A DNA stretch of 16,218 nucleotides. Origin: a virus. The stretch is taken from the UHGV virus genome UHGV-0099062; one strand, 5' to 3'. Positions 1 to 16,218 of the stretch are shown here, one piece after another; the first letter of the stretch is position 1; each line of letters begins with the position of its first letter. The translations under genes and the position numbers were made by a program. The notes under the pieces are model-generated. The model made no database searches. It was not told the DNA's origin and saw only the letters and a program-made list of their open reading frames with translations.

Positions 1-2
1 TT

Positions 3-404
3 ATCTGCATCATCGTCTGCCTGTCATGGGCTGTTAATCATTACCGTGATAACGCAATCGCCTACAAAGAGCAGCGCGATAAGGCCGCATCCACAATTGC
101 TGACATGCAGAAGCGTCAACGTGATGTAGCAGAACTTGACGCCAGATACACAAAGGAGCTTGCTGATGCTAACGCGACTATCGAAAGTCTCCGTGCTGAT
201 GTTTCTGCTGGTCGTAAGCGCCTGCAAGTCGCCGCCACCTGTGCAAAGTCAACGACCGGAGCCAGCAGCATGGGCGATGGAGAAAGCCCAAGACTTACAG
301 CAGATGCTGAACTCAATTATTACCGTCTCAGAAGTGGAATCGACAGGATAACCGCGCAGGTTAACTACCTGCAGGAATACATCAGGACGCAATGCCTGAA
401 ATAA
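3..404 (+). CDS. Rz: Rz i-spanin (lysis), 5'-truncated by window edge
   Basis: Frame 3 is open from the window edge; translation [27 protein letters not shown]...[22 protein letters not shown] closely resembles lambda Rz as remembered ([28 protein letters not shown]). N-terminal TM segment present. The ORF track 105..404 is the internal-Met part of the same frame. Confidence 0.9.
166..351 (+). CDS. Rz1: Rz1 o-spanin, outer-membrane lipoprotein, embedded in +1 frame inside Rz
   Basis: ORF wholly inside Rz in another frame. [20 protein letters not shown] gives a signal peptide with lipobox V-S-A-C, followed by a proline-rich mature region ([13 protein letters not shown]), as in lambda Rz1. AAGGAG lies 8 nt upstream of the ATG at 166. 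The track start at 136 is a TTG; the lipoprotein-compatible start is 166. Confidence 0.8.
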
Positions 405-435
405 TTTTTTTGCAAATCACAAAGTCAATTTAATG

Positions 436-458
436 AGCCTCGCGATGCGGGGCTTTTT
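436..458 (+). terminator. Intrinsic terminator after Rz
   Basis: GC-rich hairpin AGCCTCGC-gat-GCGGGGCT (8 bp including one G-U) immediately followed by TTTTT. Confidence 0.6.
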
Positions 459-465
459 GCAATAA

Positions 466-490
466 ATGCGTACCGCAACGCATGTTTTTT
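466..490 (+). terminator. Second, tandem intrinsic terminator
   Basis: Perfect 6-bp stem ATGCGT / ACGCAT with a 6-nt loop, followed by GTTTTTT. Confidence 0.55.
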
Positions 491-605
491 ACACCGAACC
501 TGCCCCTTTGGAATGGGCCTTTGAGGATACCAGTTAGTGCTGGCGAGCCTCGGTGGGCTGGTTTCCTATGCGGCAAAGGTTCATTTCAAATGGTAGGTAA
601 ACGTT

Positions 606-1127
606 ATGAATATCGTGCCACTTAATTACAAAGGTGAAATTGTCAGTTTCAACACTGATGGTTGGATCAACGTCACAGGTGTTGCTGAGAGATTTGGAAA
701 ACGCATTGATAACTGGATGCGTTTGGCAGAAACGCTTGAATACGTTCGTGCTTTAGACGAAGCGTTGACCGGGAAAGAATCTCAAATTTTACATCCCTCA
801 CAATCGAGGTATGTAAAAACCAGCAAGGCACGAAAGGACAGGGGTGGTGGTACGTGGCTACATCCAAAACTTTCAGTTGCATTTGCCCGTTGGTGTGATG
901 CTCGTTTTGCTGTGTGGTGCGACCTGCACATTGATAGTCTGCTTCGCGGTGAACTGACTGAGCAGCAGAAATATGAGCAAGCATGTCGCATTCGCGATGA
1001 CCGGAAATCAAAAGCCAGCAATGGGGCAAGAGAGATGGCTCGCTGGCGATGGGATAAGCCGGTTATTGAAGCAAATGTTGAGTACTGGCGCGAGCAACTG
1101 CAGTTGACTCTCGATATCGCGTGCTGA
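606..1127 (+). CDS. KilA-N domain protein (phage regulatory / anti-repressor-like DNA-binding protein)
   Basis: 173-aa ORF with the characteristic KilA-N core (...GGTWLHPKLSVAFARWCDARFAVWCDLHID...). Sits between the lysis cassette and the packaging genes, a usual accessory-gene position in lambdoid/P22-like phages. Confidence 0.75.
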   Translation: MNIVPLNYKGEIVSFNTDGWINVTGVAERFGKRIDNWMRLAETLEYVRALDEALTGKESQILHPSQSRYVKTSKARKDRGGGTWLHPKLSVAFARWCDARFAVWCDLHIDSLLRGELTEQQKYEQACRIRDDRKSKASNGAREMARWRWDKPVIEANVEYWREQLQLTLDIAC

Positions 1128-1484
1128 TGGCAAACGCAAAACTGCGTTATCGGAAAAATCAAAGCATTACGAGAACTGAGCAACGGCTATCCATTACAAA
1201 GCCCATCTACGGGTGGGCTTGATAATGAAACCGGAATTTATTCTTGGCAACCAGTTACGGCAGTACCACGAAACAACCCAAGCCAGTAAGTGGGGAAATA
1301 ACACTGGCAGCCACTGAAAGATGAAGCTCCTGCCTTAAGGCAAAAAAGATTCTTTGTGGTGGCGGACTGATGGAAAGACATCGGTTATTGCAGAGACCAT
1401 TCAATGAGTGGTCTCGACAATGACTTATACCCTACACGGGATAACTTAACTGATATCCCTTTTAACGGATAAACGGAGCCAACA

Positions 1485-1727
1485 ATGGCAGAGATTATTC
1501 CCATGACTGAAGAACAGAAATTCCAGTTAGAGATTTACAAGCTGGTCATGAACCAGAACGCAGCCGCAGAAGAAGCATTTCAGTTCATTGGCACTGACGA
1601 GCTGAAGCTTGAGCTATTCAAAATTCACTTCCAGTCAGGTGGCGCTAATTCAGATATCACGACCCGCACTATCGAAGCGGTGCGTAAATCGAAGGAAGCG
1701 TTAGACCTGTTCACCACCGGAGCATGA
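1485..1727 (+). CDS. Hypothetical 80-aa protein immediately upstream of terS (same position as the 80-aa ORF before gene 3 in P22-like phages)
   Basis: Clean 80-aa ORF with a GGAG-type RBS (ACGGAGccaacaATG), co-oriented with and tightly spaced to terS. No recognisable motif. Confidence 0.6.
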   Translation: MAEIIPMTEEQKFQLEIYKLVMNQNAAAEEAFQFIGTDELKLELFKIHFQSGGANSDITTRTIEAVRKSKEALDLFTTGA

Positions 1728-1762
1728 TGCTCAACCTGAAATAACGATTAAGTGAGATGAAT

Positions 1763-2251
1763 ATGGCAGCACCAAAGGGCAACCGATTCTGGGAGGCCCG
1801 CAGTAGTCATGGGCGAAACCCTAAATTCGAATCGCCTGAGGCGCTGTGGGCTGCTTGTTGTGAATACTTCGAGTGGGCTGATGATAACCCGCTATGGGAG
1901 GGTAAGGTATTTTCATATCAGGGAGAAATAATTAAGGCTAATCTTCCTAAGATGCGAGCCATGACTATTTCAGGATTGTGTACCTTCCTTGATATCACCA
2001 GGCAAACATGGGGAACCTTCCGGTCAATGGAAGGTTTTTCTGACGTCACATCACGAGCGGAAGACATCATCTACGACCAGAAATTCTCTGGCGCAGCCGC
2101 TGACCTTCTCAACGCTAACATCATCGCCCGTGATTTGGGCCTCAAAGAGCAGTCGCAAGTTGAAGACGTGACACCTGATAAGGGAGATCGCGATAAGCGA
2201 CGCTCTCGTATCAAGGAGCTATTCAACCGTGGAACTGGACGCGATTCTTGA
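1763..2251 (+). CDS. terS: Terminase small subunit (P22 gene 3 type)
   Basis: [38 protein letters not shown]... is a typical enterobacterial podovirus TerS. Length from the second ATG is 162 aa, the size of P22 gp3. RBS spacing favours ATG 1763 over the track start 1757. The 3' end overlaps terL. Confidence 0.85.
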
Positions 2252-3725
2252 TAACCTGAGCGACGAAGAGCAAATCGAGTTGCTCGAGCTACTCGAAGAA
2301 GAAGAGAACTACCGGAACACACACCTGCTATATGAATTTACGCCATACAGCAAACAGCGTGAGTTCATCGACGCCGGGCATGACTATCCAGAGCGCTGTT
2401 TTATGGCTGGTAACCAGCTTGGTAAGTCATTTACTGGTGCTGCTGAAGTCGCGTTTCACCTTACCGGGCGTTATCCGGGCACAAAAGGCTATCCTGCTGA
2501 TGGTAAATATGGCGGTGAGTGGAAAGGTAAGCGTTTCTATGAGCCTGTTGTCTTCTGGATTGGCGGCGAGACAAACGAGACTGTAACCAAAACGACTCAA
2601 CGCATCCTGTGCGGTCGTATTGAAGAGAATGACGAGCCAGGCTACGGTTCCATACCGAAAGAAGACATCATTAGCTGGAAGAAGTCTCCTTTCTTTCCGA
2701 ACCTTGTTGATCATCTTCTGGTTAAGCATCACACGGCTGATGGCGTTGAAGATGGCATTTCAATCTGCTACTTCAAACCATACTCGCAAGGACGCGCTCG
2801 CTGGCAGGGTGACACAATCCACGGCGTGTGGTTTGACGAAGAGCCACCATACAGCATTTATGGCGAAGGGCTTACCCGTACCAACAAATACGGGCAATTC
2901 TCAATTCTGACGTTTACCCCGCTGATGGGGATGTCTGACGTTGTTACCAAGTTCCTGAAGAATCCCAGCAAGTCGCAGAAAGTGGTCAACATGACCATCT
3001 ATGACGCTGAGCACTACACCGACGAGCAGAAAGAGCAAATCATCGCATCTTATCCTGAGCATGAGAGAGAGGCGCGTGCTCGCGGTATTCCTACGATGGG
3101 TAGCGGTCGAATCTTCCAGATACCGGAAGAGACGATTAAGTGTCAGCCGTTCGAGTGTCCTGATCACTTCTACGTCATCAATGCAATGGACTTCGGATGG
3201 GATCACCCACAGGCACATATCCAGCTTTGGTGGGATAAAGACGAGGACGTGATTTATCTTTCTCGCGTCTGGAAGGCCAAACAGAAGAAGGCGACAGAGG
3301 CATGGAGTGCTGTTAAAGCATGGAGCAAAAACACCCCTACGGCTTGGCCTCATGACGGGCATCAGCACGAAAAGGGAGGCGGCGCTCAGCTCAAGGAACA
3401 ATACGCCGACGCTGGGTTCGACATGTTGCCAGATCATGCAACATGGCCTGATGGAGGTAATGCGGTCGAACCCGGGATAGCAGAGATACGCGACATGATG
3501 CTCGACGGTCGTTTCAAGGTATTTAACACCTGCGAGCCATTCTTTGAAGAGTTTCGCCTGTATCACCGCGATGAGAACGGGAAGATCGTCAAGCTAAATG
3601 ACGACATCCTTTCTGCTGTTCGCTATGGCTACATGATGAGGCGTTTTGCAATACAGATGCGAGACATCAAAGATCCTAAAGAGATTGATTACTCAAGCTA
3701 CAACATACCTTGCGGAGTTGGATGA
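2229..3725 (+). CDS. terL: Terminase large subunit (P22 gene 2 type; ATPase + nuclease)
   Basis: 498 aa. N-terminal ATPase region with a Walker A-like GNQLGKS and a Walker B-like WFDEEP motif. GTG start overlapping terS by 23 nt; AAGGAG 10 nt upstream. Stop TGA overlaps the portal ATG (ATGATG). Confidence 0.95.
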
Positions 3726-5926
3726 TGGCTGATGATAGAAAGATGACTGACTGGCATCGCAAGGTGCTGTGCAACTTTGATAATGCCTGGTCAGCAACGC
3801 AGGATATGCGAGAGCAGATTATTGAGGCTCAACGTTTCGTCCGGGTGTCCGGCGCACAGTGGGAAGGCAGCACAAACGCTGGTTACTCATTTGATGAAGG
3901 CAGGTTTGAGCATTACCCGCGCTTTGAACTGAATAAGATTGCCCGTGAATGTGATCGCATCATTGGCGAGTATCGACAGAATCGCATCAGCGTTAAATTC
4001 AGGCCGAAGGATGACAAGGCATCGGAAGCGTTAGCCGAAAAGATGAACGGCAAATTCCGCGCTGACTATCAGGAAACATCCGGTGGCGAAGCGTGTGATA
4101 ACGCATTTGATGATGCTGTAACGGGCGGATTCGGTTGTTTCCGCATGTGTGCCGATTACGAAGATGAAATGGACCCAAGTAACGAGCAGCGACGCATCAG
4201 CCTTCTTCCTGTTTACGACCCAGCGACATGCGTTTTCTTCGATCAGGACAGCAAGCAATATGACCGCTCTGATGCTATGTGGGCTATGGAAATGTTCTCC
4301 ATGACGCCTAAAGCGTTCGAGGCTGAATACCCTGATTCCATCGCGGCAAGCCTTTCTCGTGATGACACTGGTACTCAGTATGACTGGTCAACGCCTGACG
4401 CCATCTATGTTGGACGCTACTACGAAGTTCGCGTAGAGAAGGTGAAGCTCACAGCATGGCGTAACCCTGTTAGCGGAGAAACGGCAATCTATGATGAAGA
4501 TCAAATCAAAGATATTGTCGACGAGCTGACCGATGGCGCATTCGAACTGATTGGTGAGCGGACAGTGAAGAAACGCCGAGTTTATTGCGGTCTTCTGTCT
4601 GGCGCTGAATGGCTGGAAGAACCGAAGCGTATTCCGGGCGAACATATTCCTCTCATCCCGGTATATGGGCGTCGTTCATTTGTTGATAATCAGGAGCGAA
4701 TCGAAGGCCACGCAGCAAAAGCGATGGATGCACAGCGTCTTGAGAACCTGATGGTTTCCATGATTGCAGATAACGCTACTCAGGCTGGCGGCGATGGCAT
4801 TCCTGTAGTTGATGTTGACATGATTCCTGGTCCTCTTGCCACTCATTGGGCGGAGCGCAACAAAAAGCGCCCGGCGTTCCTGCCGATGGTCAGTCTGAAA
4901 AACAAAAACGGAGATATTACTGCGCAGGCTCAGGTCAGCAGTTATACACCTACAACACAAATGCCTCCTGCTCTTGCCGGGCTATTGCAGTACACCGGAA
5001 CTGCTATTCAGCAAATTACAGGTGCGTCGCAGCTTGAGAACATGCCGAGCAACGTCGCCACCGATACCGTTGATAGCATCTTTAACCGGATGGACACGCA
5101 GTCCTATATCTACATGGACAACATGGCTAAATCCATGCGTCGCGCTGGCGTTGTGTGGCTTTCTATGGCGCGTGAGGTCTATGGCAGTGATACGCCGATG
5201 CGTATCGTTAATGAGGACGGCAGCGATGACGTGGCGCTGATGACTGGTGAAGTGGTTGACCGTCAGACAGGGCAGGTTATCGCGCTTAATGACCTTTCGC
5301 AGGGCAACTATGAAGTGACTGTCGATGTCGGTCAGTCGTTCGCTACTCGTCGTGATGCAACGGTTAAGTCGTTACTTTCCATGCTGGCACTTATCCCACC
5401 AGGAACGCAGAAGCACGACCTTGTATCGTCGATGATTCTCGACAATATGGACGGCGAAGGGATGGACGACCTTAAAGAATACAACCGCAATCAGTTGCTT
5501 CTGTCTGGCGTTATCAAGCCGAGAACGCCTGAAGAACAGCAGATGGTTGAACAGGCGAAACAACAACAGGCCAGTCAGCCAGATCCGGCTATGGTTGCAG
5601 CGCAAGGTCAGCTTCTTGCAGGTCAGGCTGAATTGCAGAAAGCGCAGAACGAACAGGCAGCCATTCAGGTTAAAGCATTCCAGGCACAGACTGATGCTCA
5701 GGTTGCAGCGGCAAACGTTGTGAAAATCCTCGCATCTGCCGATAGCCAGCAGAAATCTGATATCCGCGAGGCTCTGAAACTGCTCGGACAGTTCCAGCAA
5801 CAGCAAGGAGACAATGCCCGTGCTGATGCAGAGCTTGTCCTGAAAAGTCAGGCACAGGGTCATGCGCAGCGAATGGACATCAGCAGCATCCTGCAAAAAT
5901 CAACCCAGCAACAATCACAGCAGTAA
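3725..5926 (+). CDS. gp1: Portal protein (P22 gene 1 family, divergent N-terminal two-thirds)
   Basis: 733 aa from ATG 3725 (GGAG 7 nt upstream; the track start 3710 is a TTG). Shares the P22-portal motif GEHIP.IPV and the C-terminal helical barrel region DPAMV.AQG.LL.GQAEL.KAQN with Q-rich tail. Position directly after terL. Confidence 0.9.
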   Translation: MADDRKMTDWHRKVLCNFDNAWSATQDMREQIIEAQRFVRVSGAQWEGSTNAGYSFDEGRFEHYPRFELNKIARECDRIIGEYRQNRISVKFRPKDDKASEALAEKMNGKFRADYQETSGGEACDNAFDDAVTGGFGCFRMCADYEDEMDPSNEQRRISLLPVYDPATCVFFDQDSKQYDRSDAMWAMEMFSMTPKAFEAEYPDSIAASLSRDDTGTQYDWSTPDAIYVGRYYEVRVEKVKLTAWRNPVSGETAIYDEDQIKDIVDELTDGAFELIGERTVKKRRVYCGLLSGAEWLEEPKRIPGEHIPLIPVYGRRSFVDNQERIEGHAAKAMDAQRLENLMVSMIADNATQAGGDGIPVVDVDMIPGPLATHWAERNKKRPAFLPMVSLKNKNGDITAQAQVSSYTPTTQMPPALAGLLQYTGTAIQQITGASQLENMPSNVATDTVDSIFNRMDTQSYIYMDNMAKSMRRAGVVWLSMAREVYGSDTPMRIVNEDGSDDVALMTGEVVDRQTGQVIALNDLSQGNYEVTVDVGQSFATRRDATVKSLLSMLALIPPGTQKHDLVSSMILDNMDGEGMDDLKEYNRNQLLLSGVIKPRTPEEQQMVEQAKQQQASQPDPAMVAAQGQLLAGQAELQKAQNEQAAIQVKAFQAQTDAQVAAANVVKILASADSQQKSDIREALKLLGQFQQQQGDNARADAELVLKSQAQGHAQRMDISSILQKSTQQQSQQ

Positions 5927-6016
5927 TTAACCAATAACGTGCAATGGCTGTCTTTATGAGGCCTGGCACCCTATTGCCTTCCGATGGGCTGAACATCGAG
6001 TAAACAGGGGTAACAA

Positions 6017-6910
6017 ATGGACCAGATGGCAGAAAACACACCAGAAGTTGAAATAGAAACCGATACATCAGAGCAGATTCCTGATGATGTCGAACTGGCT
6101 GAAGAAGTCGAAACAGAAGATGGCAGTGAGTCCTCCGGCAATGATGCAGAGGAAGCTACTGAAACTGATGACGACGAATCAGAACAGGAATTCTACTTTG
6201 GTGACGAAAAGCTGGATTCGCCAACCAGCGAAGATGGCGCTGAGCATGGACTGGTAAAACACCTGCGCAAGACGATTAAAGAGAAAGACCGCGAGCTGAA
6301 AGAGCTGATGCGTCAGTCCCAGAAACCCGTCGAGCAGCAGCCGGTAATCACTCAACCACCGCGAATGCCAAAACTGGATGATGAGGACATCGGTTTCGAT
6401 GAAGAAATCTACCAGCAACGCATGGCTAAGTGGGCGGAGGACAACGGCAAATACCAGGAGCAAGTACGAGAGCGGAAACGAGAGGAAGAGGCGCGTACCG
6501 CAACGCTTCAGCAGAAAGCAGCCAATTACATGCATAGAGTAAAAGCACTGAAAGTGGCTGGTTACCAGGATGCAGAGCAGGCTGTACGCGAAGATGTTCC
6601 TGTTCACATTCAGGACATGATCCTTCTTGAGTCAGAGAAGCCGGAAATCGTTGTTCTGGCACTCGGTCGCAACGCTGAACTGCGCAAGCAACTGGCAGAA
6701 GCTACCAACCCCGTAGCAATTGGTCGTCTGCTGGAACGTATCGAATCGAAGGCCAGAATCATGCCAAAAGCAAAAACCACGGCAGCCACAACCCCGACAG
6801 TTAAGGGGAGCAACGGCGCAGTAATCAATAACCTCGACAAACTGAAAGCCAAAGCGCTGGAAACTGGTGACTGGACGCCGTATTTCGCCGCTAAAAGGCA
6901 AAAAAAATAA
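6017..6910 (+). CDS. gp8: Scaffolding protein
   Basis: 297 aa, strongly acidic N-terminus (run of E/D), helical, basic C-terminal coat-binding-like tail (...KLKAKALETGDWTPYFAAKRQKK). Position between portal and coat as in P22-like phages. Confidence 0.8.
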   Translation: MDQMAENTPEVEIETDTSEQIPDDVELAEEVETEDGSESSGNDAEEATETDDDESEQEFYFGDEKLDSPTSEDGAEHGLVKHLRKTIKEKDRELKELMRQSQKPVEQQPVITQPPRMPKLDDEDIGFDEEIYQQRMAKWAEDNGKYQEQVRERKREEEARTATLQQKAANYMHRVKALKVAGYQDAEQAVREDVPVHIQDMILLESEKPEIVVLALGRNAELRKQLAEATNPVAIGRLLERIESKARIMPKAKTTAATTPTVKGSNGAVINNLDKLKAKALETGDWTPYFAAKRQKK

Positions 6911-6928
6911 CCTATCGGAGCATTAAGC

Positions 6929-8194
6929 ATGGCTAACCAATTAGTAAAAGACCTTGAAATCATGTTCGAAAACTACGTTGAAGGCTTTGAGGCCGCCTGC
7001 GTAGTTTCCCGTAACGCTAAAAAATTCCGTCCCGGTGATACAGCAATGCAGCGAGCAGGTGATGTTCTGTATCGTCCGCAGCATTACCACATGAACATTG
7101 AGGAGGGCTTGGACCTCAGCGAAAAAACATCAACAGCACTGGTTCAGCGCCTTGTTCCTTCTGTGTTCAAGGAGCCGAAAAACATTCTGTACACTCTGGA
7201 TGCGCGTGAAATGCGTGACCCTGAACATAAAACTGAAGCTGGTCGAGCCGCAGGTATGCGCCTTGCTGCACAGATTGACTCTGACCTGATTTCCATGGTC
7301 ACGCAGCGTGCTACTAACGTGGTCGCAGTTCCTGACTCAGCAACTGGCTCGCGTGGCCTTGCCTTGTGGAATGGTGCGGCAGATATTGATGCCACCATGA
7401 CGGCGATTGGTGTGCCGCAGGGTATCAACCGTCGCTCTTTCTGGAACCCCTTCAACTACAAAGACCTTGCTGGCGAGCTTGGTCACCGTGCCTACGCTCA
7501 GGGCGCAACCATGACAGCATACGAAAAAGCGCAAATCCCTCCGGTTGCTTCCTTCGATAGCTACAAGACCGATATTTCCGGTCGTGTTCCGGAGGGTAAG
7601 ACTGTAGAAAATGGCATTAAGCTGACTGAAGAACCTAAGCACAAGGTTGAAGCGAAAGATGTTAATGGTATGCCTGTTGATAACCGACAGGGGACAATTA
7701 AGGTATCTGCTGCGGGTTTGCAGGTTGGCGATGCGTTTACCATCGCAGGTGTGAATTCCGTACACCAGATCACCAAAGATACCACCGGGCAACCGCAGGT
7801 ATTCCGCGTTCTGGCAGTAGACACAGCAGGAACCACCGTAACAATCTCTCCGAAAATTCTGCCGCCTAACAACACGGATACCGCCAGCCGTCCATATGCA
7901 AACGTTGATGCTAATGCGGCAAATAATGCAGTAATCACCATTCTCAACAAAAAAGCCGCACCGGCTAACCTGTTCTGGGCTGATGGTTCTGTTGAGCTGA
8001 TGTACGGCAAACTGGCGTTCCCGACTGGTCAGGGTCCACAGGTAATGACTGCAACCACCGAGCAGGGCGCTACGCTGATCATGTCTTACGCCTTCGACCA
8101 CATCAAAGGCGTAACCACTGCGCGTTTCACCACTCTGTACGGTTGCTCTGTACTTGTTCCTGAATATACGGGCATCGTTATTGCCGGGCAGTAA
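6929..8194 (+). CDS. gp5: Major capsid (coat) protein, P22-like HK97 fold with insertion domain
   Basis: 421 aa. Position after scaffold; shares the VFWADGSVEL-type motif with P22 coat (NVFWADDAIRI as I remember it). GGAG RBS 9 nt upstream; followed by a strong terminator. Confidence 0.9.
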   Translation: MANQLVKDLEIMFENYVEGFEAACVVSRNAKKFRPGDTAMQRAGDVLYRPQHYHMNIEEGLDLSEKTSTALVQRLVPSVFKEPKNILYTLDAREMRDPEHKTEAGRAAGMRLAAQIDSDLISMVTQRATNVVAVPDSATGSRGLALWNGAADIDATMTAIGVPQGINRRSFWNPFNYKDLAGELGHRAYAQGATMTAYEKAQIPPVASFDSYKTDISGRVPEGKTVENGIKLTEEPKHKVEAKDVNGMPVDNRQGTIKVSAAGLQVGDAFTIAGVNSVHQITKDTTGQPQVFRVLAVDTAGTTVTISPKILPPNNTDTASRPYANVDANAANNAVITILNKKAAPANLFWADGSVELMYGKLAFPTGQGPQVMTATTEQGATLIMSYAFDHIKGVTTARFTTLYGCSVLVPEYTGIVIAGQ

Positions 8195-8201
8195 TTTTAT
8201 T

Positions 8202-8224
8202 GGGGCTTCGGCCCCATTTTTATT
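8202..8224 (+). terminator. Intrinsic terminator directly after the coat gene
   Basis: GGGGC-ttcg-GCCCC hairpin (5 bp, UUCG tetraloop) followed by ATTTTTATT, 8 nt after the coat stop codon. Confidence 0.7.
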
Positions 8225-8235
8225 GGGAGAAGACA

Positions 8236-8424
8236 ATGGCACGAACAATGCTCTATAAGCCTGGCAACATGATCACCTGTGGTCAGTTTGCTGTCGATTA
8301 CATCATCGTTGATGACGAAGAAGTTAAATCTCACCTGAAAAAAGGCTGGGTAAAAACTCCTGAAGAAACCGCAACGAAGCAAAAAGTGGCTAAGGCGGAA
8401 GAAGATGGCGAAAACGAAGGGTGA
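8236..8424 (+). CDS. Small hypothetical protein between coat and gp4 (62 aa)
   Basis: ATG at 8236 preceded by GGGAGA. The track start at 8200 is a TTG lying inside the terminator hairpin, so 8236 is preferred. 3' end overlaps the gp4 start by 20 nt. A small ORF at this position is common in non-P22 subtypes of P22-like phages. Confidence 0.55.
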   Translation: MARTMLYKPGNMITCGQFAVDYIIVDDEEVKSHLKKGWVKTPEETATKQKVAKAEEDGENEG

Positions 8425-8866
8425 TCTCGTTCTAAAGGCTTTACGAAAAGCCGGGCTGTATTCCAATGCCACGTTGACAGATGCTGACCCTCAGGCAATT
8501 GAAGATGCCATTAATGACCTCGAAGACATGATGGCAGCATGGCAGGCTAAAGGTATCGAGCTTGGATATCAGTTTGCTGATACAGAAAACGGCATCATGC
8601 CGTTACCTGACGATGATTCAGGTATCCCTGCATGGGCAAATGATGGCGTCGCTTTGAAACTCGCTGTGCAAGTGTGCATGGATAACGTCATTCAGCCGTC
8701 AGACGCTCTCCTTACCGCTGCTGACAGTGCATATCAAACAATCTGTATCGCTTTAACCAAAATACCACCACTTGAGCGGCGAAATGATATGCCTCGCGGG
8801 GCGGGGTTAAAAAGCGCGTTTACGTGGAATCGGTTTTACATCGAGAAAGATGATCCGAGTACGTGA
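8405..8866 (+). CDS. gp4: Head-completion / tail adaptor protein (P22 gp4 homolog)
   Basis: [47 protein letters not shown] matches the P22 gp4 N-terminus pattern (TKGDLV..ALRK.G...ATLTD.EPQ...A.DDLE.MMA.W) and its position. Confidence 0.9.
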   Translation: [153 protein letters not shown]

Positions 8867-8875
8867 GGTGAATAA

Positions 8876-10294
8876 ATGCCGATTCAGCAACTTCCGCTTA
8901 TGAAAGGTGTCGGCAAAGACTTTAGAAACGCCGACTATATCGACTATCTGCCAATGAATATGTTGGCTACACCCAAAGAAATCCTGAACAGCAGCGGATA
9001 TCTTCGCTCATTCCCTGGCATTGCCAAACGCTCTGATGTGAACGGTGTATCTCGCGGCGTCGAGTACAACATGGCGCAGAATGCTGTTTATCGCGTATGT
9101 GGTGGTAAGCTGTACAAAGGAGAAAGTGAAGTCGGTGACGTCGCCGGAAGTGGTCGCGTATCAATGGCGCATGGTCGAACATCTCAGGCTGTAGGCGTTA
9201 ATGGTCAACTGGTCGAGTATCGCTATGATGGCACGGTTAAAACCGTCTCAAACTGGCCTACAGACAGTGGATTCACGCAGTATGAGTTAGGCTCAGTCCG
9301 CGACATTACGCGCTTGCGTGGGCGTTATGCGTGGTCAAAAGACGGCACTGATTCATGGTTTATCACTGACCTTGAAGACGAATCGCATCCTGACCGTTAC
9401 AGCGCACAATATCGTGCCGAGTCTCAGCCGGACGGCATCATCGGTATCGGAACATGGCGAGACTTCATCGTCTGCTTTGGCTCATCGACGATTGAATATT
9501 TCTCCCTGACGGGCGCAACCACTGTTGGTGCCGCTTTGTATGTCGCACAACCATCGCTGATGGTGCAGAAAGGCATCGCCGGAACCTACTGCAAAACGCC
9601 GTTTGCTGATTCGTATGCGTTCATCAGCAATCCGGCAACAGGTGCGCCGTCTGTATACATCATCGGCTCCGGTCAGGTGTCACCAATCGCCAGCGCGAGC
9701 ATTGAGAAAATCCTCCGCTCCTACACTGCTGATGAACTGGCTGATGGCGTGATGGAATCGTTGCGCTTTGATGCTCATGAGTTGCTGATTATCCACCTTC
9801 CGCGCCACGTCCTAGTATATGACGCATCTTCAAGCGCTAATGGTCCGCAATGGTGTGTGCTGAAAACAGGCTTGTATGACGATGTGTACCGCGCTATCGA
9901 CTTCATTTACGAAGGCAATCAGATAACGTGCGGAGATAAGCTGGAATCGGTTATCGGCAAATTGCAGTTCGACATCAGCAGCCAGTATGGGCTACAGCAA
10001 GAACATATTTTATTTTCACCATTAATAAAGGCAGATAATGTCATTATTAATGACCTTGAATTAGAAACATCAGGCGGCGTGTGTGATAGAATAGATAAAA
10101 TATTTATATCAGCAACAACAGATGGAATAAATTACGGCAGGGAACAAATGGTCGTATTGCAATCTCCATTTGTATATGACAATCGAGTCTTATGGCGCAG
10201 GATTGGAAGAGTTAGACGTCTCATCGGTTTTAAATTCAGAGTTATTGCAAAAGGCCCGGTTACATTATCCGGACTGTCTATTCGTACAACATAA
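8876..10294 (+). CDS. gp10: Tail hub / head-completion protein (P22 gp10 homolog)
   Basis: 472 aa, the same length as P22 gp10, with near-identity over long stretches as remembered (MPIQQLP.MKG.GKDF.NADYIDYLP.NMLATPKEILNSSGYLRSFPGI...). The last ~100 codons are AT-rich. Confidence 0.95.
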   Translation: MPIQQLPLMKGVGKDFRNADYIDYLPMNMLATPKEILNSSGYLRSFPGIAKRSDVNGVSRGVEYNMAQNAVYRVCGGKLYKGESEVGDVAGSGRVSMAHGRTSQAVGVNGQLVEYRYDGTVKTVSNWPTDSGFTQYELGSVRDITRLRGRYAWSKDGTDSWFITDLEDESHPDRYSAQYRAESQPDGIIGIGTWRDFIVCFGSSTIEYFSLTGATTVGAALYVAQPSLMVQKGIAGTYCKTPFADSYAFISNPATGAPSVYIIGSGQVSPIASASIEKILRSYTADELADGVMESLRFDAHELLIIHLPRHVLVYDASSSANGPQWCVLKTGLYDDVYRAIDFIYEGNQITCGDKLESVIGKLQFDISSQYGLQQEHILFSPLIKADNVIINDLELETSGGVCDRIDKIFISATTDGINYGREQMVVLQSPFVYDNRVLWRRIGRVRRLIGFKFRVIAKGPVTLSGLSIRTT

Positions 10295-10315
10295 ATCGAA
10301 ACTTAAGGAGTAGAT

Positions 10316-10861
10316 ATGTTAAGTGAAGATATTAGAGATGTAGTTGGTTATGAGGGGCTTTATGCGGTAACTCGTGATGGTAGAGTTTACTCTCACTCAA
10401 GGATAATAAATACATGCCATGGGGCTACTCGATTAATGAAGGGTAGATGGCTGAAGCCAGCAAAGGATGGGGGCGGATATCTATTTGTTGGTCTCTGTAA
10501 GGATGGAGAGGTTAAACCAAAAAAAATACATCGAATTGTTGCTGAGGCATTTATTGAAAACAAAGAATCTAAACCATTCATCAACCATATAGATAATAAT
10601 AATCAAAATAATAATGTAGAAAATCTTGAATGGTGTACGCAACATGAAAACATGCAGCATTGCTCTAGAAGCGGTAGGGTGAAAATACCTCATTATGTGG
10701 GTTCTGAACATCCATCGTCCAAATTAAATGAAGATATAGTTCTGGTCATAAAAAATGATTTGATTACGCCAATTAGCGAGTTAGCTGCAAGATATAATGT
10801 GACTGTTCAGGCCATACACGCCATTAAAAAAGGGAAGACATGGAGGCATGTGAATGGCTGA
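10316..10861 (+). CDS. Free-standing HNH homing endonuclease (NUMOD4 + HNH_3 + C-terminal HTH)
   Basis: NUMOD4 motif [18 protein letters not shown]; HNH_3 core [46 protein letters not shown]; C-terminal HTH-like [45 protein letters not shown]. Strong RBS AAGGAG 7 nt upstream. Hand counts on 60-nt samples give about 22% GC here versus about 48-52% in flanking genes. Confidence 0.9.
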
Positions 10862-11555
10862 TCCCAATCTCAACGTGCCAGTAACTATCCAGGCCACCCG
10901 GCTAGACACATCAATCCTTCCACGCAATATATTCAGCCAGTCTTACCTGCTGTATGTCATTAATCAGGGGGCTGATGTCGGCGCAATTGCCGGGAAGGCA
11001 AATCAGGCTGGTCAGGGCGCTTACGATGCTCAGGTGAAAAACGATGAACAGGACGTCGAACTGGCAGATCACGATTCAAGAATCACCGCAAACACAAAAG
11101 CGATAAATCTCCTTGAGGTCAGGTTAACAACCGCCGAAGGGAAGATAGTCGTACTGCGTAGCGATGTTGATTACTTGCTGGATGAGGTTATCGATATTCA
11201 GGCGCATCTGGTCACTGTTGACAAAAGACTGGATGGCGTAGAAAGCGATGTATCTGACATTAAGAGTGATTACGTATCGAAAACCGTAACCAAATTGCAG
11301 TCTCTTGCGTCACCGCTGGATGTAAAAACATCATATTCAGTTGATGGAATTCAGGTTGTTGGAGCAAGAAATACCGGATGGACTGCAGCCACAGGTACAC
11401 CTCTTCTTGGCTCATTCAACGCTAACCAGTCATACACGGTCGGCACTACGTACACACAATCCGAAGTCGCAGCTATCGCTACAGGTTTGGAGCAGGCGCG
11501 GCAGCGTATTCTGGCGCTTGAAACAGCACTTAGATTACATGGGTTGATTGACTGA
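10854..11555 (+). CDS. gp26: Tail needle protein (P22 gp26 homolog), trimeric coiled-coil fibre
   Basis: 233 aa. [36 protein letters not shown]...[31 protein letters not shown] and C-terminal ...[21 protein letters not shown] match P22 gp26. Start overlaps the HNH stop (ATGGCTGA); stop overlaps the gp14 start (TGATG). Confidence 0.95.
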
Positions 11556-12010
11556 TGATTACATTCAAACCAACGCGAAACATCGACCTGATAGAAGCTG
11601 TCGGAAATCACCCTGACATTATTGCCGGAAGCAACAACGGTGATGGATACGACTATAAACATGATTGCCGTTACTTTGAGGTGAACGTGCACGGGCAGTT
11701 CGGCGGCATTGTTTACTATCAGGAGATTCAGCCGCTTACATTCGATTGCCACGCCATGTACCTGCCAGAGGTTCGCGGATTCAGCAAGGAAATCGGGCTG
11801 GCGTTCTGGCGATACATTCTGACTAACACCACCGTTCAGTGCGTCACATCGTTCGCTGCACGCAAATTCCGCCACGGGCAGATGTACTGCGCAATGATTG
11901 GCCTTAAGCGTGTAGGAACCATCAAGAAATACTTCAAAGGCGTGGATGACGTGACGTTTTACAGCGCCACACGCGAAGAACTAATCGACTTCCTGAATCA
12001 CGGGAGATAG
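11555..12010 (+). CDS. gp14: P22 gp14-like virion/head assembly protein
   Basis: 151-aa ORF at the position of P22 gene 14 between tail needle and ejection proteins; translationally coupled to gp26. Confidence 0.8.
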   Translation: MITFKPTRNIDLIEAVGNHPDIIAGSNNGDGYDYKHDCRYFEVNVHGQFGGIVYYQEIQPLTFDCHAMYLPEVRGFSKEIGLAFWRYILTNTTVQCVTSFAARKFRHGQMYCAMIGLKRVGTIKKYFKGVDDVTFYSATREELIDFLNHGR

Positions 12011-12012
12011 CC

Positions 12013-12705
12013 ATGTTATATGCATTTAAGCTGGGCAGAAAACTGCGCGGCGAGGAACCGTATTGCCCTGAAAAAGGCGGGAAAGGTGGCAGTTCTGATA
12101 AAAGTGCAAAGTATGCCGCAGAAGCTCAGAAGTATGCCGCAGACCTGCAAAATCAGCAGTTCAACACCATCATGAACAACCTGAAGCCGTTTACTCCTCT
12201 GGCTGGGAAGTATGTCGGCAGCCTTGAGAACTTATCGTCTCTGGAAGGGCAAGGTCAGGCACTTAACCAGTATTACAACTCTCAGCAGTATAAAGACCTT
12301 GCTGGTCAGGCTCGCTATCAGAGTCTGGCGGCAGCGGAAGCAACAGGTGGATTGGGTTCCACCGCAACCAGTAATCAGTTAGCAACAATCGCACCAACGC
12401 TTGGTCAGCAATGGCTGTCTGGACAAATGAACAATTACAACAACCTGGCAAATATCGGTCTTGGCGCTCTTCAGGGACAGGCAAACGCCGGGCAAACATA
12501 TGCCAACAACATGAGTCAGATTTCACAGCAAAGCGCGGCGCTGGCGGCGGCAAACGCCAACCGACCGTCAGCATTGCGGCAGGGTGTTAGTGGTGCTGCA
12601 TCCGGTGCGCTTTTGGGTGGTGGTATAGCCAGTGCTCTCGAGCTATCAACTCCGTGGGGTGCTGGTATCGGTGCTGGTCTTGGTCTGCTTGGTTCGCTGT
12701 TTTAA
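12013..12705 (+). CDS. gp7: Ejection (internal virion) protein, P22 gp7 homolog
   Basis: 230 aa. MLYAF.LGRKLRGEEP..PEKGGKGGSSDKSA.YAAEA.KYAADLQNQQFN and C-terminal ...WGAGIGAGLGLLGSLF match P22 gp7. Confidence 0.9.
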   Translation: MLYAFKLGRKLRGEEPYCPEKGGKGGSSDKSAKYAAEAQKYAADLQNQQFNTIMNNLKPFTPLAGKYVGSLENLSSLEGQGQALNQYYNSQQYKDLAGQARYQSLAAAEATGGLGSTATSNQLATIAPTLGQQWLSGQMNNYNNLANIGLGALQGQANAGQTYANNMSQISQQSAALAAANANRPSALRQGVSGAASGALLGGGIASALELSTPWGAGIGAGLGLLGSLF

Positions 12706-12715
12706 GGGGTAATCA

Positions 12716-14131
12716 ATGGCTACTTGGCAACAGGGTATTAATTCTGGTGGTTTTCTGGCTGGCATCGGTACGCAAAATGAGAATGCGCCAAAGGCAAGCG
12801 ACATTAACGCAACGCTTGGTCTGATCCGCGAAAACAATGAACTGGCTCGATCAGGTGCAAATAACGTTGGTCTGACCGCGTTACGTGGTCTGGCTGGAGT
12901 TGCTGATATTTATAAGCAGGAACAGCAACAGAAAGCTATTAGTGCGTTCAATAAGGTTCACGCTGATGCATGGGCTTCTGGTGATCCATCGGGACTATTT
13001 AAGTTTGCCCAGGAAAATCCAGCGTTTGTTGCACAGGCACAACAGGCGTTTTCCGGTCTTAATGAGCAGCAACGCAACGATATGGGCGAGTTAGCCATGA
13101 GGGCTAACGTCGCTCTTTCTCAGGGACCGGAAGCCTACAGTAAATTCATTACTGACAACAAGGACGGGTTAAATCGCGTGGGGGCGAATGCTGACTGGAT
13201 GATTCAGACAGGTATCCAGAATCCAGAGCAGCTATCACACATGCTGACTACTATGTCTCTCGGTGCGCTTGGACCAGAAAAGGCGTTTGCTGTTCAGGAT
13301 AAGATGGCTGGTCGTGAAATTGACCGAGGCAGGCTGGCAGAGACAATCCGCAGCAATCAGGCTGGAGAAGCACTTCAGGCGAGAGGGCAAAACCTTTCCT
13401 ATCAGTCAGCAATGACTGGACACAATATCGCAGCACAACGCTTGGCTCTGGATCAGCAAGAGTTCGGGTTTAAGATGCAGCAAGCACAGGAAAAGGCTCA
13501 GCAGTTGATTAGCGAAGCACCTAAGCTGTCAGTAAACATGGAAAAAGGCATCGAGACGGCTGTAAACAATGCTACAGCATCATCAAACTCAGCCAATTCT
13601 ATGAGTGCGCTTGCTCAACAGTTCAGAGCAGAAAAACCAACGACAGGTTTGTTCGGTAACGCACAGAACATGTTCGCAAAACTTACCGGAAGCGATACAA
13701 CATTGCGTGATTTGCGCATCCGCCAAAATGCCCTTGTTAACAGTCAGGTTCTTAAATTCCTACCTCCCGGCCCCGCAACGGATAAAGACGTTGAGATCGT
13801 TCGGCAGGGTGCACCAACTGACATGGATAACCCTGAGACGGTCGCAAGATGGCTTGATGCGATGGCAAACCTTGAGCGACGAAACGCGCAGTTTAATGAG
13901 TTTAAAGCCGAGTGGATGAGCGCGAATGGCAATCCAGGACAATCGCGTAATGGCGGTCAGATATTGGGGTTGGATGTTAAAAAAGGTGAATCATTGGGGA
14001 GTGCCGTTAAGCGGTATATGTCAATGAATACTGACGCAGCGCCAGCACAAGATTCGACACCTTCAGGAGAACCACGGAATCAGGTTGGATCATATACCTC
14101 AAAATCAGGCATTCAATTTACGGTGGAATGA
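12716..14131 (+). CDS. gp20: Ejection protein, P22 gp20 homolog
   Basis: 471 aa, the length of P22 gp20; position between gp7 and gp16; stop overlaps the gp16 start (ATGA). Confidence 0.9.
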
Positions 14132-15969
14132 TGAAAGTAACTGCAAACGGTAAGACATTTACCTTTCCTGATGGTACGAGCACCGAAGATATTGGCACCG
14201 CCATTGATGAGTATTTTGCTGGTCAGGCTGTTCAGCAACAAACAGTTAATCAGGCCAATAATGCACCAACACGGGAAGAACCATCATTGATGCAACAAGC
14301 TGGCGATTGGCTCACTGGTGGTCAAAGTGCAGGGCAAATTGCAGAACAGGCTGGTCGTGGTCTGGTAAACATACCATTTGACGTATTGCAGGGCGGCGCA
14401 AGTCTGATTAATGCAATCAGCCAGGGGCTTGGTGGACCCAAGGTTTTGGATGATGTTTATCGTCCAGTAGACAGACCGACAGACCCCTACGCACAAGCCG
14501 GTGAAACAATTGGTGGGTATTTAGTTCCAGGAGTTGGAACGGCAGGAAGCATGGCTATTGGATCACTGGCAGAGGCCGCAAATCAGAAAGGCGATTTCGC
14601 ACAAAATGCAGCTAAAAATGCCGGAGTTAACCTTGCCGCTCAGGGTGTTCTTTCCGCCGCAGCAAAGGGAATAGGGCGTGGAATAACGGCTATAAAAGGT
14701 GATATTGCGCCAGAAGTGGCGAAGAAAATTGCCACATCAGAATCGATGGGCGTGACACCAATGACATCTGATGTTATCCCGCCGAAAAATGCTTTCACTC
14801 GCGGCCTTACTCAGGATGCCGAGGGGGCTTTGCTCGGGACAGGCTCAAAGCGAGCGGAGCAATATGCAACGCGTAGTAAGCTGGTAAGTAATTATTTTGA
14901 CCGTTTTGGTGAGTACAACCCTGATGATGTAGTGAAATCTCTGACCACCACGTTAAGGGGGAGGAAGGATGCCGCTGGCGCTGTTATCAATGACGTCACC
15001 AATAAAATGGGTAATGCCGCAGTTGATACCACAAATACCATGAATGCTCTGAATACAGCGATCGCAAGACAGGAACGACTTGGGACGTCTGCCAATCAAA
15101 GCCTGCTTACATCCTTGCGTAACCTACGTGAAGAATTAGCAAACCCTGCAACTGATTTGGATGTTACGTTTGATCTCTTGCGTCAGCACAGAACAGCATT
15201 TAGATCTAATGTTCAGGGAGATGCTATGGTCTTCCCCAACCAGGCAAAAGCAGCTACCAATATGGTAGAGAATGCAATGTCAAAAGACCTTCGTAACGCA
15301 GTTGCTAAAAACCTCGGTGCATCAGACGCAGCAAAATACCTTAAAGCAAATTCCGATTATGCAAACGTTTATAATAAGGTGCTTAATAAAAACATTGCTA
15401 ACAAACTCAACAAGGCAAGCAGTGAAGCCAGTCCTGAACTTATAAATACCGTTGTATTAAGCAGAAAACCATCTGACGTGAAACGAATCTGGAGCGCACT
15501 GGATGATAAAGGGAAAGATGCTATGCGTGCAGCTTACGTCAGCAAAATAGCGGAAAAGGCCGGTGACTCTCCAGCCAAGTTCATCACTGAAGTTAATAAG
15601 CTGAAATCTCAGTCAGGCGGTGAAATTTACAACACTATTTTTTCTGGAAAGCACATGAAAGAACTTGATGCTCTTCATGAAGTTCTGCAGCAAACAGCAA
15701 GGTCAGACACCGCAAATGTAGTAACTCAGACGGGGCAATCGCAAGCCAACAGGATAAGGACGATTGGCGCAACTGCGACTCTTGGCGTATCAATGGGGCT
15801 TGAGGCTGGTTTCGGTGCAATGATGCGCTTGTATGAGTCCAAAGCAGCAAGGAATGCGCTCTTACGTCTGGCAAACACCAAAGCAGGAACACCAGCCTAT
15901 GAAAGAGCGTTGAGTAACGCTGCAAATGCCATCAGGCCGCTGCTTGCTACTGAGGCAACACAGCAGTAA
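14128..15969 (+). CDS. gp16: Ejection protein, P22 gp16 homolog
   Basis: 613 aa, close to P22 gp16 in size; last gene of the conserved ejection-protein trio. Confidence 0.9.
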
Positions 15970-15993
15970 CGTATGGGGAATTGGATTCAATCG

Positions 15994-16218
15994 TTAACAT
16001 TTTCTTTTTACTTTTCCAACAAAAGCTTTGGTTGAATCCATATTCCCATAACCAGAAATGGTTTTTGACATTAAAACTGTTCCAGTAGGATGTATTACCC
16101 ATGAGTCGATAACGCGTTGAGTTTCGCCATTCGCGCCGATTCCTATGATGGAGTTTTTAGACAATGCTGAACCGCCCCGGGAATCCTGGAGACTAAACTT
16201 CCTGAGAAAGAGGTAAAC
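15994..16218 (-). CDS. C-terminal 74 codons of a minus-strand gene that starts beyond the window; unknown accessory (moron-region) protein
   Basis: The reverse-complement frame is open from the window edge to a TAA at 15996..15994 (...SKNSIIGIGANGETQRVIDSWVIHPTGTVLMSKTISGYGNMDSTKAFVGKVKRKC*). The track does not list it because it has no start in the window. Local sequence is AT-rich; convergent with gp16. Confidence 0.4.
   Translation of the reverse strand, partial: VYLFLRKFSLQDSRGGSALSKNSIIGIGANGETQRVIDSWVIHPTGTVLMSKTISGYGNMDSTKAFVGKVKRKC

Follow-up and report, generated by a model that had tools for sequence, protein, structure and literature searches.

Salmonella lysogens carrying imm434 exclude phage P22, a property called Hex for "heterologous exclusion" (PMC3564112). 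In vitro, an internal fragment of the Hex protein protects the repressors of 434 and P22 from RecA-stimulated cleavage, deletion of hex increases spontaneous induction 30-fold in recA+ hosts, and the fragment complements that deletion in part (PMC3564112). The full-length protein is toxic when overexpressed, and the internal fragment is the form that was assayed (PMC3564112). The Hex family has no Pfam model and no solved structure and comprises about 124 clusters at 50% identity. The SieA protein of P22 crosses the inner membrane several times and has an FxRYPxEAxxFNK motif, and its gene is carried between gene 16 and gene 9 by a third of P22-like phages (PMC10883804). The third element relevant to the locus described here is the insertion sequence IS629, of the IS3 family. 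The full 1310-bp element starts with TGAACCGCCCCGGGAATCCTGGAGA and finishes with TCTCCAGGAAACCCGGGGCGGTTCA, with TG...CA ends and terminal repeats of 25 nt, the right one being TGAACCGCCCCGGGTTTCCTGGAGA in full copies. In reference copies of IS629, the transposase is of the IS3 family and is encoded by orfAB, with a programmed frameshift. A full copy of the 1310-bp element matches, at 100% identity, the LC567824.1 feature "insertion sequence: IS3 family IS629."

In the stretch of DNA that we analyzed ("the window," 16,218 nucleotides of UHGV-0099062), we recognized the late (virion) operon of a P22-like element, either phage or prophage. At the end of the window opposite to gene 16, Rz (105-404), a lysis gene, is followed by accessory genes coding for a KilA-N domain protein (606-1127, plus strand) and a DUF2560 protein (1485-1727, plus strand), both located between Rz and the small terminase gene. 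Next come the genes for the gp3 small terminase, the large terminase, the P22 portal, the scaffold, the coat, gp4 and gp10 (8876-10294), and then those for an HNH/NUMOD4 endonuclease, the needle protein (10854-11555), gp14, gp7, gp20 and gp16. The endonuclease-like ORF codes for 181 residues with NUMOD4 and HNH_3 domains typical of homing endonucleases (10316-10861, plus strand). It sits between the gp10 and needle genes, overlaps the start of the latter, and is missing from most prophages with an identical gp16; the L005 prophage harbors a different HNH gene one position upstream of that slot. Gene 16 (14128-15969, plus strand) is the final late-operon gene ahead of the accessory region. It encodes a DNA ejection protein of 613 residues of the P22 gp16 family, for which PF26808 is recorded for exactly this product, and its homologues in Escherichia coli prophages are annotated "DNA transfer protein" or "P22-gp16 family."

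The GC content drops from 0.489 in positions 1-15969 to 0.344 in 15970-16100 (0.384 in 15970-16167), in agreement with the AT-rich turn that the initial annotation had noted directly after the gp16 stop. The same annotation had placed the start of a variable accessory region here, and this was borne out by prophages with identical gp16 proteins, which carry very different sets of genes before the tailspike gene. The stop codon of gene 16 and that of the convergent frame are separated by a 24-nt spacer (15970-15993), whose sequence is the same in intact E. coli prophages and is replaced by another in Salmonella prophages where another gene follows.

On the minus strand, one frame reads through 74 open codons from 16218 to 15994, closing with a TAA at 15994-15996; the other two frames of this strand are full of stops. 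The open frame reported initially was thus reproduced. Its first 17 codons (16168-16218, VYLFLRKFSLQDSRGGS), however, correspond to the left end of IS629 in antisense, and the 57 codons from 15994 to 16167 are true gene codons. As its first 17 codons belong to IS629, the 74-codon frame is a chimera rather than an intact gene. The convergent minus-strand gene proposed at first is therefore real in part: its 3′ end lies 25 nt past the gp16 stop, but the gene is cut at 16167/16168 and does not continue beyond the window.

The remnant (15994-16167, minus strand), ALSKNSIIGIGANGETQRVIDSWVIHPTGTVLMSKTISGYGNMDSTKAFVGKVKRKC, represents the 3′-terminal 57 codons plus the TAA stop of a 129-codon gene of the Hex family. 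Its sequence shows 100% identity with the 3′ half of the uninterrupted gene of E. coli Ecol_276 (L001 6095-6463/6484) and 97% with gp14 (orf129) of the Salmonella phage vB_SemP_Emek, and its translation is identical to residues 73 to 129 of the intact allele. The C-terminal Cys (KRKC) is kept, and the leader and the first Cys were lost to the IS. The remnant is devoid of a promoter, a ribosome-binding site, the GTG start and a signal peptide, which argues that it is dead and yields no functional product. By sequence comparison, the window copy is a pseudogene fragment. Because it is still 100% identical to intact alleles, the insertion appears to be recent.

The remaining 51 nt of the window (16168-16218, plus strand) correspond to the terminal inverted repeat TGAACCGCCCCGGGAATCCTGGAGA and the leader of IS629, being identical at 51 of 51 positions to the first 51 nt of the 1310-bp element, although a match of 51 nt does not separate IS629 from its near-identical relatives. 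The window thus comprises 4% of the element. Positions 16168-16192 are the left terminal repeat of full copies and begin with the 5′-TG characteristic of the family. The orientation is such that orfA would be found just past the window, its ATG lying 4 nt beyond the window end in reference copies. The likeness to IS629 includes the TG terminus and the whole 25-nt terminal repeat; what sets this copy apart is its insertion site, which is found in none of 5,426 complete E. coli genomes.

We searched those 5,426 genomes with positions 15900-16218. Positions 15900-16168 were matched in 131 genomes at 98.5 to 100% identity, all of these matches being P22-like prophages in which gp16 is followed by a "hypothetical protein," and no match crossed the 16168 boundary. 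By comparison, a 53-nt query that includes the IS629 end was found at 12,289 places in 3,253 of the 5,426 genomes, on chromosomes and plasmids. In alignments with the uninterrupted Ecol_276 prophage (L001) and phage Emek (L002), the match is perfect through GACAATGCT, which ends at 16168, and the sequences are unrelated beyond that point. The homology break falls exactly on the terminal base of the IS, and the junction is uncertain by one base because T16168 could belong to either the gene or the IS. In an uninterrupted gene, position 16167 is joined directly to TTGTAAGCC. We propose that IS629 inserted at around codon 72 or 73 of the 129-codon accessory gene, with its left end filling positions 16168-16218. 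Taken together, the alignments make it very probable that 15994-16167 is the dead 3′ half of an accessory (moron) gene of a P22-like prophage of the Lederbergvirus type, cut by IS629.

The position of the window end can be accounted for in the same way. A look-up of the 74-residue edge product found it in two contigs of the 10- to 20-kb size class, and in none that extends past the end base. One of them, L017 (ENA ERZ28664083 scaffold_1483, 14,878 bp), agrees with the window in every base over its last 10,225 nt and terminates exactly where the window does. This shared end indicates that short-read assemblies broke in a multicopy IS, and the window ends at 16218 because the assembler was unable to cross it. 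The components of the locus are all of known kinds. There is nothing unusual in this inactivated gene, another accessory gene of a prophage that IS629 has knocked out, and the insertion explains why the contig stops there. It also calls for caution, as open frames that touch a contig edge may be IS chimeras.

The initial annotation had described an inverted repeat next to the gene ends, 15973-15990 versus 16033-16050 with 15 of 18 matches, which we confirmed. The arms can be extended to 19 nt (15972-15990 and 16032-16050; 84% complementary), and they enclose an AT-rich loop of 41 nt. When the region was shuffled 300 times at the mononucleotide level, an 18-mer repeat as good as this one arose twice. 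Its described geometry needs correction, since the repeat is centered at around 16011 and not on the AAGCTT sequence, which is found at 16023-16028 in a separate small palindrome within the loop (16017-16034). Neither does the repeat span both gene ends: its left arm falls within the 24-nt spacer, and its right arm within the minus-strand coding sequence. Folding of the RNA compared with shuffled sequences gave z = -3.6 for the plus strand and z = -1.9 for the minus strand. P22 late transcription must cross this site to reach the tailspike gene, which counts against a terminator.

Other explanations for these features were weighed. The first reading of the locus took it for a convergent accessory gene that is intact, its 5′ part merely lying beyond the window edge, and the fact that the frame is open up to the final base of the window agrees with it. 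Nevertheless, the homology to the intact gene ends at 16168, 72 codons before its start, and what remains is the 51 nt of IS629. An early stop or the lack of a start codon beyond 16218 had been named as signs of a chance open stretch. If IS629 continues as in the reference copies, the frame would indeed close after 28 further codons, none of them ATG or GTG, which would agree in part with those signs. The intact-gene reading is already refuted by the alignment and has next to no chance of being correct. It is very improbable that the join between gene and IS is an assembly artefact, that is, a chimeric contig end, with the gene being intact in the real genome. The window does stop within a repeat, where assemblers misbehave, and the junction was found in no complete E. 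coli genome, nor did exact scans of viral, genome and JGI metagenome contig collections match the left junction. In contrast, the homology breaks off right at the terminal TG of the IS, where transposition would place the junction, the identical junction is present on two contigs that differ in length, and nothing else is appended at the junction. The coincidence between the homology break and the terminal TG thus favors real transposition over a chimeric join. As to the nature of that event, an IS-associated deletion rather than a simple insertion is possible. A simple insertion would join the right end of IS629 to TTGTAAGCCATGCC and the remaining gene sequence; the predicted right junction (the IS right end, 0 to 8 nt, and the rest of the gene) had no match in metagenome and viral contigs. 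Finally, the inverted repeat might be a functional RNA element, a terminator or a 3′ stabilizer, at the convergent junction, which we regard as unlikely. A repeat beyond chance expectation, a plus-strand fold that stands out from shuffled sequences with G-U pairs that favor that strand, and a stem that in Emek can still pair through G-U pairs in spite of one substitution in each arm (two in total) are in its favor. However, neither strand has a U-tract, the loop is long (41 nt) and the stem AT-rich, and a terminator scan of 15700-16218 identified no terminator-like site on either strand, which speaks against the bidirectional terminator suggested at first. Moreover, the left arm is missing in Salmonella prophages in which the gene has a different downstream neighbor, as in L021, the annotators of Emek marked terminators elsewhere in the region and none here, and the available alleles, at 98 to 100% identity, are too alike for covariation.

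The intact gene has 129 codons on the minus strand, with its 3′ end located 25 nt past the gp16 stop. It follows an identical gp16 in at least eight independent contigs (L005-L007, L009-L012 and L014) and is also present in phages Emek and ST-35, with diverged alleles in further E. coli and Salmonella prophages. It is always located in the variable region that separates gene 16 from the tailspike gene (gene 9). The near-identical orthologues Emek gp14 (orf129) and E. coli WP_001334102.1 occupy the same position with 97 to 100% DNA identity over the shared part and, unlike the window copy, are uninterrupted. The gene starts with GTG, with AAGGAGG 5 nt upstream; translation from this codon gives a protein of 129 residues whose leader peptide is complete, in line with the annotation of phage Emek. 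The RefSeq entry WP_001334102.1 (L001 6463-6484, E. coli Ecol_276) has an ATG start and 122 residues, and its start was probably placed seven codons too late, judging from the sequence.

The intact gene points in the same direction as mnt, antisense to the late operon, a layout typical of genes expressed from the prophage, sieA being one example. The order mnt, Rap1a-like gene, Hex-like gene is often found. In several related prophages (L007 8272-8607, L009, L014 and L018-L020), the gene immediately upstream of the intact Hex-like one, in the same orientation as it and mnt, encodes a Rap1a-like protein of 111 residues. This protein matches the Pfam family Rap1a of type VI secretion immunity proteins (E = 1.2e-14) and has a signal-peptide-like N terminus. 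The presence of a homologue of type VI secretion immunity proteins as prophage cargo in the immI region may merit attention.

The Pfam and PADLOC searches advised for the complete gene were run with the intact prophage alleles and returned no match: there was none to Pfam profiles and none to PADLOC-DB families at E values up to 10. An NCBIfam search gave nothing but a subthreshold leader-peptide match. The PHROGs search assigned the intact protein to phrog_2651 (E = 4.6e-60), a family of unknown function. Using tblastn in phage genomes, we identified Emek and ST-35 as well as full-length matches with 28% identity in 434, Sf6, HK446, HK633 and Sf101. These more distant matches correspond to the gene just downstream of cI, which is annotated "repressor protection protein" (Hex) in 434 and is gene 38 in Sf6 (L016 2501-2905). 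BLASTP aligned the intact protein with 434 Hex over its full length (E = 7e-13), and a profile-sequence comparison with hhalign gave a probability of 98.5% (E = 1.5e-15) over 128 columns. From these alignments, the intact protein appears as a clear distant homologue of 434 Hex and Sf6 gp38. The initial annotation had anticipated genes of the superinfection exclusion type after gene 16, and the intact gene is indeed homologous to an exclusion gene, 434 hex (PMC3564112). The gene after gene 16 in this lineage of P22-like prophages thus belongs to the Hex family, which is poorly understood and without a Pfam model.

The intact allele aligns end to end with 434 Hex and Sf6 gp38, with 28 to 30% identity and a similar length. 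They share an AxA sequence followed by ECW after a hydrophobic N terminus, an ETW/DSW strand, and the C-terminal sequence STK[AS]FVG.V..C, the last two of which are both present in the window remnant. There are differences as well. The 434 and Sf6 genes are found directly downstream of cI, in the PRM operon, whereas the window gene and all its near-identical alleles follow gene 16, and the window copy is truncated and unable to function. With P22 sieA, the Hex-like gene shares the slot between genes 16 and 9, the orientation antisense to the late operon, and a presumed expression from the prophage (PMC10883804). The two proteins have no sequence relationship: by inspection, the intact Hex-like protein lacks the FxRYPxEAxxFNK motif, and, apart from a leader of 18 residues, it is predicted to be all-beta and free of transmembrane helices.

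An exhaustive HMM search yielded 124 family representatives after clustering at 50% identity, nearly all of 120 to 140 residues. A Pfam search with ten diverse members returned nothing relevant, and the few long proteins that matched weakly are unrelated repeat proteins. Among the 104 full-length representatives, 101 have a hydrophobic N terminus, which in 98 is closely followed by C-[WFY], and 96 have a Cys within the last six residues. The residues at positions -3 and -1 before the conserved x-C-W are A, V or S and A or S, respectively, which fits signal peptidase I. The intact alleles similarly have a signal-peptide-like N terminus (AxA, then ECW), one N-terminal Cys and one C-terminal Cys. 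A lipoprotein was rejected because there is no lipobox, the residue that precedes the conserved Cys being usually E, D, K or Q. AlphaFold2 modeled the intact protein with a pLDDT of 87.5 and nine strands after residue 18, and this confident model predicts an eight-stranded up-and-down beta-barrel. An outer-membrane barrel appears unlikely, as several strands have four to six residues, there is no C-terminal aromatic residue, and the terminal cysteines are paired. From the sequence and the model, we infer a small exported barrel that would be closed by a disulfide bond between its N- and C-terminal ends.

As regards function, the following concerns the intact relatives and not the window remnant. 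For the Hex family, exclusion from the periplasm is suggested by the leader, the paired terminal cysteines and the predicted barrel, together with the presence in the sieA slot. We tentatively favor such a role for the intact protein, which may act against incoming P22-like phages, on the grounds of its leader peptide, its paired cysteines, its location in the sieA slot and the neighboring homologue of type VI secretion immunity proteins with a signal-peptide-like N terminus. This has to be reconciled with the one biochemical study available, which gives Hex a cytoplasmic role that does not fit with export, and any function deduced from Hex has to be read in the light of an identity of 28%. 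As the main alternative, the intact protein might act as proposed for 434 Hex, by a cytoplasmic "repressor protection" that dampens RecA-stimulated cleavage of the prophage repressor. The phenotype of the 434 hex deletion, the in vitro cleavage experiments and the partial complementation argue for this (PMC3564112). In contrast, the signal-peptide-like N terminus and the paired terminal cysteines are conserved in the family, full-length Hex is toxic and the sole assayed form is an internal fragment, and the gene is unlinked to the repressor gene, being found in the immI/sieA slot beside the signal-peptide-like Rap1a-like protein. We therefore consider repressor protection by the intact protein improbable. 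A more general proposal than the periplasmic role that we favor for the intact protein, and a more doubtful one, is that the Hex family might consist of widespread Sec-exported, disulfide-closed eight-stranded barrels that would act in the periplasm to exclude P22-like phages, through interference with the gp7/gp20/gp16 ejection conduit. If so, its members would be slotted behind cI or in the sieA position, their mechanism would be unlike that of the inner-membrane protein SieA, and the cytoplasmic role of Hex would need to be read anew.

The 434 Hex protein itself (L015 2501-2905) begins with MIRIAALLSILLTTSANS followed by ECW and ends with GTCNQ. It thus has the leader-like N terminus and the terminal cysteines of the family, which is awkward for its published cytoplasmic action, and these features could explain the toxicity of the full-length protein.

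A sister prophage with an identical gp16 (L011, GCA_964040345.1) has also been disrupted by an IS3-family element (HTH_Tnp_1 and rve domains; positions 3812-5025), which argues that IS hits are recurrent in this lineage of P22-like prophages. That element cut the gene 20 homologue short and fused it to early-region genes. Decayed Hex-like alleles are common (P0012, P0014, P0016-P0018 and P0020-P0022). Those in P0016 and P0018 are frameshifted, alleles with foreign C termini suggest other insertions or rearrangements, and P0012 represents 642 member sequences.
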